Source of the DNA: Octopus vulgaris
Lineage: Eukaryota
Reading direction: 5' to 3'
Assembly (NCBI GenBank): GCA_951406725.2
Contig: OX597826.1
Location: forward strand, 54,808,001-54,872,000
Length of the DNA stretch: 64,000 nucleotides
The translations under genes and the position numbers were made by a program. Below, one piece after another: positions 59,456 through 61,539 of this stretch (position 1 is its first letter; each line of letters starts with the position of its first letter). The notes below the pieces were generated by a model. The model was given only the letters and a program-made list of their open reading frames with translations. It searched no databases and was not told the DNA's origin.

Positions 59456-59546
59456 TTTTAGTACAATTGTTTCATACAAAGACAGGCTTTATTACAAGTT
59501 GCAAAAATTGCAGCAGATAAAAGTGTCCCGTACTCATCAGCTAAAA
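59456..59546 (-). ncRNA. Type-I hammerhead ribozyme, inverted copy
   Basis: Reverse complement of 59705-59795. Confidence 0.75.
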
Positions 59547-59704
59547 TACATTTGAGTTCTCTAGACATCTTAGTGGGTGAGGTTATACTCATGAAATATT
59601 GGAGATAGTTCCATTAGAGGCAGATATAGGTTGGGTGAGGTTGTACTCATGAAATATTGGAGATAGTTCCATTAGTGCAGATATAGGTTGTAAACAGTTT
59701 TGTA

Positions 59705-59795
59705 TTTTAGCTGATGAGTACGGGACACTTTTATCTGCTGCAATTTTTGCAACTTGTAATAAAGCCTGTCTTTGTATGAAACAATTGTACTAAAA
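59705..59795 (+). ncRNA. Type-I hammerhead ribozyme with extended stem II
   Basis: TTTTAG CTGATGA [60-nt hairpin GTACGGGACACTTT...AAAGCCTGTCTTTGTAT] GAAAC AATT GTA CTAAAA; intact core; predicted cleavage after 59789. Confidence 0.8.
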
Positions 59796-59941
59796 ACCAA
59801 TCCATTCTTGTTGCTTCTTTCTCGTTTATAATCACCCCACATTACTGTATGGATAACACCATATTGTTTTTCTGGTGCATCTAAGTTAAGTACCACATTC
59901 AAGTAAATTCATTGGAAGTTACTTGAATCTTAATTGCTTTG

Positions 59942-60204: not shown

Positions 60205-60276
60205 TGCAGCATACAAATCCTTCGTTCTGATCGTAGAACCGCCCCGCTTCTCTTTGCTATCAGTAAATATTTTGTG

Positions 60277-60348
60277 TCCCAAGTGGTCTAGTGGTTAGGA
60301 TTCCGCGCTCTCACCGCGGCGGCCGGGGTTCGATTCCCCGTTTGGGAA
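60277..60348 (+). tRNA. trnE-CTC: tRNA-Glu (anticodon CTC); probably a retroposed copy
   Basis: 72-nt cloverleaf: acceptor TCCCAAG/TTTGGGA, anticodon stem CCGCG/CGCGG with loop CTCTCAC, T arm CGGGG-TTCGATT-CCCCG; perfect A and B boxes; no T4 terminator immediately downstream. Confidence 0.93.
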
Positions 60349-60360
60349 GATCTATTTCTG

Positions 60361-60593
60361 AAGGCGGCGAGCTGGTAGAAACGTTAGCACGCTGGGCGAA
60401 ATTCATAGCCGTATTTCGTCTGTCGCTACGTTCCGAGTTCAAATTCCGCCGAGGTCGACTTTGCCTTTCATCCTTTCGAGGTCGATAAATTAAGTACCAG
60501 TTACGCACTGGGGTCGATGTAATCGACTTAATCCCTTTGTCTGTACTTGCTTGTCCCCTTTGTGTTTGGCCCCTTGTGGGTAGTAAAGAAATA
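60361..60593 (+). mobile_element. Family-B SINE, full length, fused behind tRNA-Glu
   Basis: AAGGCGGCGAGCTGG head to AAAGAAATA tail; shares a flanking TSD with the tRNA. Confidence 0.92.
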
Positions 60594-61539
60594 TATCAGT
60601 AAATATTTTATGATTATGAAGCGATTGTTGCTGCTGTTGCTGTTTCTCTTTATCTTCTTTATGTTGTTGTTCTGTATATTGTTGCTTAAAGGAGAGGTCA
60701 GCGCTCAATGAGCAAATCTAGGACGAAAGCTTTCCTACTGCTACCAACCCCTTTCAATTTTTTCACATACAGAAATCATAGAACATCATTATACAATGTG
60801 TTCTTCATTTAAACGGTAGAGTTTGAATTCAAGAAAATATGACTATCATTTCTAGCAAGGCTTGCGACTACATTTACAGGCTCCATCTTTAGCTCAGTAT
60901 TAATGTGTTTTGTTAGCGATGCATAAGATAATACTTATTCCTGTGCTTTGCCAATATGAGGTGTTAACACCTTTCTAGCCTGTTTTTGCTTTTCCAGCTC
61001 TTGCTATTGGATTTTGTCATTGTGTAGCGTTATCAAATTTATCTTTTCACATGCTAAGGAATTTTTTCTAGGATATTTTATTCCATACCTTGATACGCTT
61101 AATTTCATAAAGAAAGAGAGAGAAAGAAAGACAGAGGTTGAGAGAAAGAAAGGCAGTGGCTGAGAGAAAGAAAGAGAGAGAGAAGCAAAGATGGGAGAAA
61201 TGGGAGAAAGAAAGTAAGAGAGGTGAAAAGAAGAATAATGATAATGTTTCTGATATATAATTAGTCGATTTCTATATAATTAACGTTTTAATAAATTAAT
61301 CAATACTTTAATTCCATTAATTGTTCAATTACTTATGGTTTTATTGATTAAAGTTGATAAGACGTACTTGGTCGTCACATTTGAAAAAAATGTATATTGT
61401 CACGTGTTGTTATTTAGTCGATATTAAATACATATGTATATATATCTATGTTTGTGTGTGTGTGTATATATATATACATATATATATATATATACATATA
61501 TAATTATATATGTATTTATGTATGTATCGCTGTATGTAC

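Follow-up and report, generated by a model that had tools for sequence, protein, structure and literature searches.

A single-copy tRNA-Glu-SINE chimera in Octopus vulgaris and similarly built tRNA-retroposon joins across the genome

Results

A tRNA-Glu and a full-length SINE within one 16-bp duplication

The stretch of DNA analyzed here (the window) comprises 64,000 nucleotides of the Octopus vulgaris genome (G000:C13:54808001-54872000; genome size, 2.8 Gb). The window is rich in repeats, which we take to be octopus SINEs; the names used for them (B, A, C, and D/E) are working family labels that were assigned independently of the published OK, OR1, and OR2 families. On the forward strand, a tRNA-Glu and a SINE of family B (SINE-B) form one continuous unit with the following parts:

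60258 to 60273, plus strand: 5' copy of a 16-bp target-site duplication, TATCAGTAAATATTTT, from the sequence
60274 to 60276, plus strand: GTG, 3 nt, read as a remnant of a pre-tRNA 5' leader; identical to the 3 nt preceding the donor gene at G000:C26:37689922
60277 to 60348, plus strand: tRNA-Glu(CTC), no CCA; ARAGORN and Rfam (RF00005; 58.7 bits; E value, 4e-10)
60349 to 60357, plus strand: 3' trailer of the donor, up to the third T of the donor terminator, GATCTATTT, from comparison with the donor
60358 to 60360, plus strand: three junction bases, absent from the donor and from the usual SINE start, from the sequence
60361 to 60593, plus strand: full-length SINE of family B, 233 nt, from comparison with other copies; 13/233 positions differ from the family majority
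60594 to 60609, plus strand: 3' copy of the 16-bp duplication; contains a T4 at 60606-60609, the first after the tRNA

An earlier, sequence-only reading of this locus had described a 16-bp repeat bracketing an intact tRNA-Glu(CTC) without CCA, a 12-nt linker lacking a T4 terminator, and a full family-B SINE, and each of these descriptions holds. TATCAGTAAATATTTT is exact at both positions and has no further occurrence in the window on either strand. The cloverleaf and the internal promoter of the tRNA are intact, with every pair being standard or G-U in the Rfam comparison. The linker (60349-60360) contains no T run longer than T3, and the first T4 downstream of the tRNA begins at 60606. The SINE is of full length when set against other copies, and it carries what we take to be an A-box-like motif at 60373-60383 and a B-box-like motif at 60435-60447. 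The repeat had also been extended to 19 bp, ending at the first nucleotide of the tRNA. A 19-nt match of 95% is indeed present, but its last three nucleotides, GTG, match the donor leader, and the duplication is better read as 16 bp followed by a remnant of the donor 5' leader. The TG of this leader also fits the target sequence, which may reflect microhomology.

Exact 16-mers spaced 200 to 500 nt apart are found 286 times elsewhere in this repeat-rich window. It is therefore the position of the two copies at the very ends of the unit, rather than their length, that places the duplication beyond chance. The best repeat flanking the SINE alone has five matching bases. Upstream of the unit, positions 59503-59830 hold a palindrome whose long inverted arms flank a short duplication in tandem, and the arrangement has a MITE-like look.

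The donor gene of the tRNA part

The Glu(CTC) gene at G000:C26:37689922 is preceded by GTG and followed by the first nine bases of the linker and then by T6. Resident Glu(CTC) genes that were fetched have flanks distinct for each gene, and no other Glu(CTC) gene in the comparison matched the 3-nt leader at 60274-60276. A search with the end of the T arm plus the trailer, allowing two mismatches, returned three places: the window, the C26 gene, and a truncated capture at C2:189551075, in which a short fragment of this tRNA with the window-unit trailer is joined to the start of SINE-A. Within the tRNA, the window differs from the donor by one change, at 60341, which turns the G7-C pair into G-U.

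Similarity between the window and the donor ends at -3 and +9. Because it stops there, the insert has the content of a nascent transcript, that is, a leader, the tRNA, and a trailer into the U-run, and the comparison supports an unprocessed pre-tRNA, rather than a mature tRNA, as the probable template. No SINE-B was found behind the C26 donor, so the two parts of the window unit come from two sources. The three junction bases may be non-templated additions, or they may represent a T5 run with a later T-to-C change plus one base. A count of junction copies had been suggested as a means of telling a chimera from a new SINE family; the window junction was found once (such searches give lower bounds), which points to a chimera.

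Similarly built chimeras occur throughout the genome

The genome was searched with exact patterns that place a T arm 12 to 40 nt upstream of a retroposon start, with SINE-B, SINE-A, and element C as the retroposons. Element C consists of about 50 nt with a short tandem tail, and its start base is constant both in solo copies and in chimeras. The searches returned 30 matches for SINE-B (23 with a stricter pattern), 56 for element C, and 23 for SINE-A. A recognizable tRNA 3' end followed by a short, mostly T-ended trailer was present in 23/30, 50/56, and at least 21/23 of these, respectively, giving a total of about 94 in-sense tRNA-retroposon joins among the 109 matches, in which tRNA ends were judged by eye with ARAGORN support for fetched loci. 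The captured isotypes include Glu, Asp, His, Leu, Ser, Arg, Gly, Lys, Asn, and others, and many of the tRNA parts are truncated at the 5' end with the trailer end retained. Reversed-pattern controls gave no matches. A T arm placed ahead of the antisense SINE-B end was matched 10 times, in no case with a tRNA acceptor end and a trailer. Chance would yield roughly 1.8 and 0.3 matches, as estimated from one to four counts in 400 kb of arbitrarily placed sequence. Exact matching sets a lower bound, since diverged copies escape it (L003, for example, was missed in the SINE-B search), and the true size of the class is likely to be a few hundred.

With 23 matches against about 28,000 SINE-B copies (estimated from four counts in 400 kb), the capture rate amounts to about 0.1% of SINE-B starts. 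Capture per copy seems far commoner in element C (56 matches versus about 7,000 copies, from one count). Seen from the tRNA side, 21 of 66 matches to a tRNA-Glu(TTC) pattern are chimeras (21/30 outside the main cluster), which inflates the tRNA gene count of this genome. Further chimera partners are the heads of other SINEs, positions inside SINE-A, and LINE-like 3' ends that are truncated to varying extents. U6 is captured as well: 22 of 30 fetched U6 loci (48 listed) are joined to partners also seen in tRNA chimeras.

Several observations were made alongside these searches. The 22 chimeras among the U6 loci L213 to L242 have SINE-A, SINE-B, element C, another SINE, and LINE-like 3' ends as partners, and five U6 genes are clustered at G000:C1:139423726-139428422. 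Large clusters of tRNA genes of a single isotype were seen at G000:C5:51226921-51304321, C10:81834051-81972538, C7:54059562-54099751, and C29:8819745-8829123; the contents of such clusters are Asp genes (period, 158 bp), Glu(TTC), Glu(CTC), and Leu(CAA) with introns of 26 to 36 nt. Element C (examples are L183 to L212 and L333 to L352, such as G000:C26:34725339) resembles the 3' tail of SINE-A, which is also found alone from the matching position; element C may be a tiny retroposon, a cleaved RNA, or a reverse transcriptase stop. About half of the full-length solo SINE-B copies (e.g., L052, L170, and L310) run straight into an internal SINE-B position, a self-nesting at one site. At L047 (G000:C14:42499797), a tRNA-like sequence of no assigned identity, with no ARAGORN call, lies together with a SINE-B within a 12-bp duplication. 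At L118, L143, and L175, tRNA-Asp pieces stand head-to-head with SINE-A, or tRNA/SINE-A chimeras form inverted pairs, an arrangement that recalls twin priming or inverted duplication. Five Leu chimeras (L203, L281, L286, L289, and L291) have a common deletion in the anticodon arm, which suggests a defective but transcribed group of tRNA-Leu donors.

Duplications around the tRNA and the SINE together in a part of the chimeras

A duplication of at least nine matching bases of nonsimple sequence was found around the whole unit in 10 of 24 SINE-B chimeras and around the SINE alone in 1 of 24, compared with 2 of 552 mismatched pairs; the tRNA start offsets were set by hand. Together with the position of the 16-bp repeat at the unit ends, this bears out the proposal that tRNA and SINE were inserted at the window locus as one piece. 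An earlier chimera set gave 10/34 for the whole unit, 1/34 for the SINE alone, and 18/1122 for mismatched pairs. Fourteen of the 24 chimeras have no qualifying duplication, 4 of these lying within TA-type repeats and the others having short duplications or none. Solo SINE-B copies have a duplication of at least nine bases in 9 of 42 cases. One chimera (L044; G000:C10:28890029) interrupts an antisense SINE copy, the rest of which follows after a 5-bp duplication, and thus provides an internal stand-in for an empty site. This is a three-part insert, in which a 12-nt piece of the tRNA 5' end is followed by a leader, a full tRNA, and the SINE, and it suggests a second jump.

Leaders, trailers, and introns of the captured tRNAs

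In 19 full-length chimeras, the sequence before the tRNA was compared with the leader of the donor defined by the trailer. It matched over 3 to 6 nt in 9 chimeras, 2 nt in 2, and 0 to 1 nt in 8; the background averaged 0.8 nt. The trailer match was at least eight bases in this comparison; the underlying 90 chimera-like rows include 5 duplicate rows from cross-matching anchors, none within the 19 used. For several chimeras, no donor was found among the genes fetched, and the most reused trailer led only to a truncated copy (L091).

Junctions of the donor-matched SINE-B chimeras, as judged by reading, contain one to three extra bases in 5 of 14 cases and are flush in 9 of 14; solo SINEs too carry extra 5' bases. 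Captures ending in CCA amount to 1 of the approximately 94 joins (L103), plus L110. Among Leu(CAA) chimeras with a parsed anticodon arm, the intron is kept in 12 of 13, compared with 22 of 22 resident-like genes; unless the template was RNA, intron retention says nothing about processing stage. The exception (L202; G000:C6:41520423) has no intron, keeps its trailer, and is joined to element C. It is possible that L202 derives from a spliced but 3'-unprocessed precursor, with an intronless donor as the alternative, since a subset of the 76 Leu matches was fetched; as a spliced retrocopy, it would prove an RNA template.

No sign of common descent among SINE-B chimeras that use one trailer

A single Glu(TTC) trailer has four SINE-B partners, two element C partners, and one SINE-A partner, with differing truncations and junction bases. 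The four SINE-B bodies behind this trailer have at most one rare variant in common per pair (0 or 1 are shared by 2261 of 2278 background pairs) and scatter in a weakly resolved tree (233 nt, no support values). No common ancestry of these chimeras was thus found, although with such a tree the negative is weak. Five identical junctions on C27 and C29 were considered as a young family and rejected, as long shared flanks indicate DNA duplication; in Rfam, their sequence gave just microsatellite-driven miRNA matches below the cut-off.

Twelve of 21 SINE-B chimeras, including the window unit, have no T4 before the SINE and might allow read-through, and 9 keep a T4 or longer run. The window tRNA has changed at 1 of 72 positions and its SINE at 13 of 233 (Fisher P value, 0.20). 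When chimeras were pooled (14 of 24 rows; 10 were dropped for want of a matching reference or tRNA), the tRNA parts differed at 3.0% and the SINE parts at 6.0% of positions (P value, 6e-4). This difference is no evidence of selection on retro-born tRNAs, because truncated tRNAs are as conserved as full-length ones (7/278 versus 16/488 changes, with no excess conservation in the latter) and because the SINE templates themselves differ from the family majority.

Discussion

A probable template jump from SINE RNA to a pre-tRNA

The window unit is a single-copy chimera of a SINE and a tRNA-Glu with the leader and trailer of its donor, set in one 16-bp duplication. It was probably made by a single retrotransposition in which a LINE reverse transcriptase left the SINE RNA and continued on a pre-tRNA. 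Its anatomy is clear, its tRNA part matches one donor gene, and it stands beside many independent chimeras of the same build that have other donors, other partners, and other sites. From these we infer an RNA intermediate, an order in which the SINE was copied first and the pre-tRNA second, and the jump itself. In such a scheme, a LINE reverse transcriptase would prime on the 3' end of the SINE RNA at the target and copy this RNA to its first base. It would then add one to three non-templated bases, of which an A could pair with the 3' U-run of an acceptor, and would jump onto the oligo-U end of an unprocessed pre-tRNA and copy it up to the leader. Pairing of an added A with the U-run would explain why U-ended Pol III RNAs (pre-tRNA and U6) are taken and CCA-ended tRNAs rarely are. 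Experiments reported for the R2 reverse transcriptase in vitro show that template jumping requires non-templated addition and works best with a 1- to 2-nt overhang complementary to the 3' end of the acceptor (PMC8857657). The mixture of extra and flush junctions described above leans toward a jump without being decisive. With respect to the partner LINE, 5 of 22 scanned open reading frames had reverse transcriptase domains, and no tail among them matched the SINE tail, separately inserted copies aside.

A template switch was one of two routes that the sequence-only reading had offered, and it is favored by a donor with no SINE-B behind it; the other, a Pol III read-through transcript, fits poorly with the sole donor found, which ends in T6. 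Besides the jump, we regard it as unlikely, though worth weighing, that the pre-tRNA was ligated to SINE RNA by RtcB or another ligase and that the joined RNA was then retrotransposed. This route has been demonstrated for human U6/L1 (PMC6789731), U6 chimeras are common in this genome too, most donor-matched junctions are flush (9/14), and the fixed start of element C could come from a cleaved 5'-OH RNA. However, extra bases are present at 5 of the 14 junctions, and the partners are mostly SINEs complete to +1, joined to pre-tRNAs ending in U-OH, an end chemistry that should not suit RtcB. A pre-tRNA ends in U with a 3'-OH, and a full-length Pol III SINE RNA has a 5'-triphosphate. RtcB is described as joining a 2',3'-cyclic phosphate to a 5'-OH, and ligation as failing with a 3'-OH or a 5'-triphosphate (PMC6789731). 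A read-through origin, in which a master with a SINE at the tRNA terminator gives a dimeric Pol III RNA that is retrotransposed, appears very unlikely. The window unit and 11 other SINE-B chimeras do lack a T4 before the SINE, and at L027 (G000:C10:31480641) a tRNA-Glu keeps a donor-like 3' flank over 48 nt or more, and a SINE-A starts about 125 nt downstream; compared with L015, this locus could have arisen through capture of a precursor made by read-through or through duplication of DNA, and longer read-through captures may exist. For the C26 donor itself, read-through was rejected on account of its T6 and the lack of a following SINE-B. No second copy of the window junction was found, dozens of donors would each require a master of their own, one trailer is joined to three partners, and the T4 or longer run kept by 9 of 21 chimeras would stop Pol III.

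Two further explanations are more improbable still. SINEs do insert beside tRNA clusters or into tRNA-like sequence, leaving a duplication around the SINE alone (L052; L051 is ambiguous), and an ancestral tRNA gene might have received a SINE at its T-rich end, the 16-bp repeat being incidental. This we consider highly improbable: the repeat brackets tRNA and SINE together with no SINE-only repeat beyond five bases, similarity to the donor does not extend past 3 nt on the 5' side of the tRNA or 9 nt on its 3' side, and the orientation is sense throughout, with none in 10 antisense matches. Least probable of all is a nascent family of dimeric SINEs with a tRNA-Glu-SINE fusion as master, as the sequence-only reading had suggested. 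The promoter boxes of the window tRNA are intact, no T4 intervenes until the far duplication, and one Glu(TTC) trailer is common to four SINE-B chimeras. Yet the window junction was found once, those four chimeras differ at the junction and scatter with no excess of shared SINE variants, and the identical C27/C29 junctions reflect DNA duplication.

Relation to known chimeras

Chimeras of U6 with LINEs and SINEs have been reported in mammals, platypus, and lizard, for the L1, L2, and RTE clades and for the SINEs Mon-1 of platypus and AnolisSINE2 (Doucet et al. 2015, PMC4476161). The chimeras described here resemble these in having a sense copy of a U-ended Pol III RNA fused to the 5' end of a retroposon, the two being enclosed by one duplication (PMC4476161; Moldovan et al. 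2019, PMC6789731). In the window unit, the small-RNA copy is in sense and ends in the U-run (trailer to T3 of the donor T6), the SINE is 3'-intact in the same orientation (positions 1 to 233), one exact 16-bp duplication surrounds both parts, and the class consists of independent copies rather than descendants of one master. A strict definition of U6/L1 (U6, with its cyclic-phosphate end, plus a 5'-truncated L1) does not cover a pre-tRNA-Glu joined to a full-length SINE. Unlike the U6 chimeras as these sources present them, the 5' part here is a pre-tRNA with a gene-specific leader, a trailer, and often an intron, and what follows it is in most cases a SINE reaching back to +1, not a 5'-truncated LINE. 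Compared with U6/L1 as reported in PMC6789731, the end chemistry suits a jump better than RtcB ligation. With dimeric SINEs, the window unit has in common the absence of a terminator between the monomers, but not the many dispersed copies of one junction.

Co-insertion of a tRNA with a retroelement has also been described for human tRNA/L1 chimeras (n = 21), which are reported to be mostly half tRNAs, mostly antisense through twin priming, with duplications of 9 to 19 bp (Law and Burns 2026, PMC13174262). In contrast to that account, the joins found here are in sense and end at the trailer U-run, and about 94 came from exact-match searches alone; the window tRNA is of full length, not an antisense half. 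A switch from SINE RNA to tRNA has been proposed as a source of SINE heads, for example, for PittSINE (Suh et al. 2017, PMC5729268), and in related work (Kojima 2015, 2018, PMC4494074, PMC5786205; Nishihara 2016, PMC4824008). As in that model, the proposed switch takes place during reverse transcription and yields a chimera flanked by a duplication. There, as far as these accounts describe it, the switch was inferred from finished families, whereas the chimeras here are one-off products with a precursor as acceptor, none of those examined being amplified. Tailless retropseudogenes of pre-tRNAs indicate that nuclear pre-tRNA has templated a LINE enzyme (Schmitz et al. 2004, cited in PMC4476161); as described in PMC4476161, those retrocopies stand alone, and here they are joined to a retroposon. 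The string "chimer" is absent from the main text of the O. vulgaris repeat paper (PMC13282606), and among the top matches in the openly searchable literature we found no report of pre-tRNA/SINE chimeras as a class; supplements (notably PMC13174262, Table S3, and the PMC13282606 repeat library), subscription papers, and Repbase/Dfam may contain cases.

Implications

The window locus is of modest interest alone and is most likely a dead end; if it were transcribed, loss of its T4 would be predicted to yield a tRNA-SINE RNA of about 335 nt. The weight lies with the class. The origin of SINE tRNA heads has usually been inferred from finished families, and here one-off intermediates are open to counting, with a donor gene to be named for each. 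Their structure suggests that the acceptor is an unprocessed precursor with a U end and that the jump occurs at the 5' end of the SINE. The presence of about 90 similar fusions suggests that the proposed step by which SINEs acquire tRNA heads is routine in this genome. The head-acquisition model thereby becomes testable as to which RNAs are taken, how often, and why almost none of the products amplify, and the leaders, trailers, and introns of the chimeras form a record of which tRNA genes are active in the germline and of their processing state.

More tentatively, and as a possibility rather than an expectation, retroposon reverse transcriptases may routinely jump onto U-ended tRNA transcripts, leaving hundreds of gene-resolved fossils of germline pre-tRNAs, of which the full-length products without a terminator, the window unit among them, would be live Pol III genes. 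If so, each live locus would give a mature tRNA as well as a tRNA-SINE dimer that can be mobilized, and together such loci would maintain a pool of retro-born tRNA genes and ready-made SINE masters.
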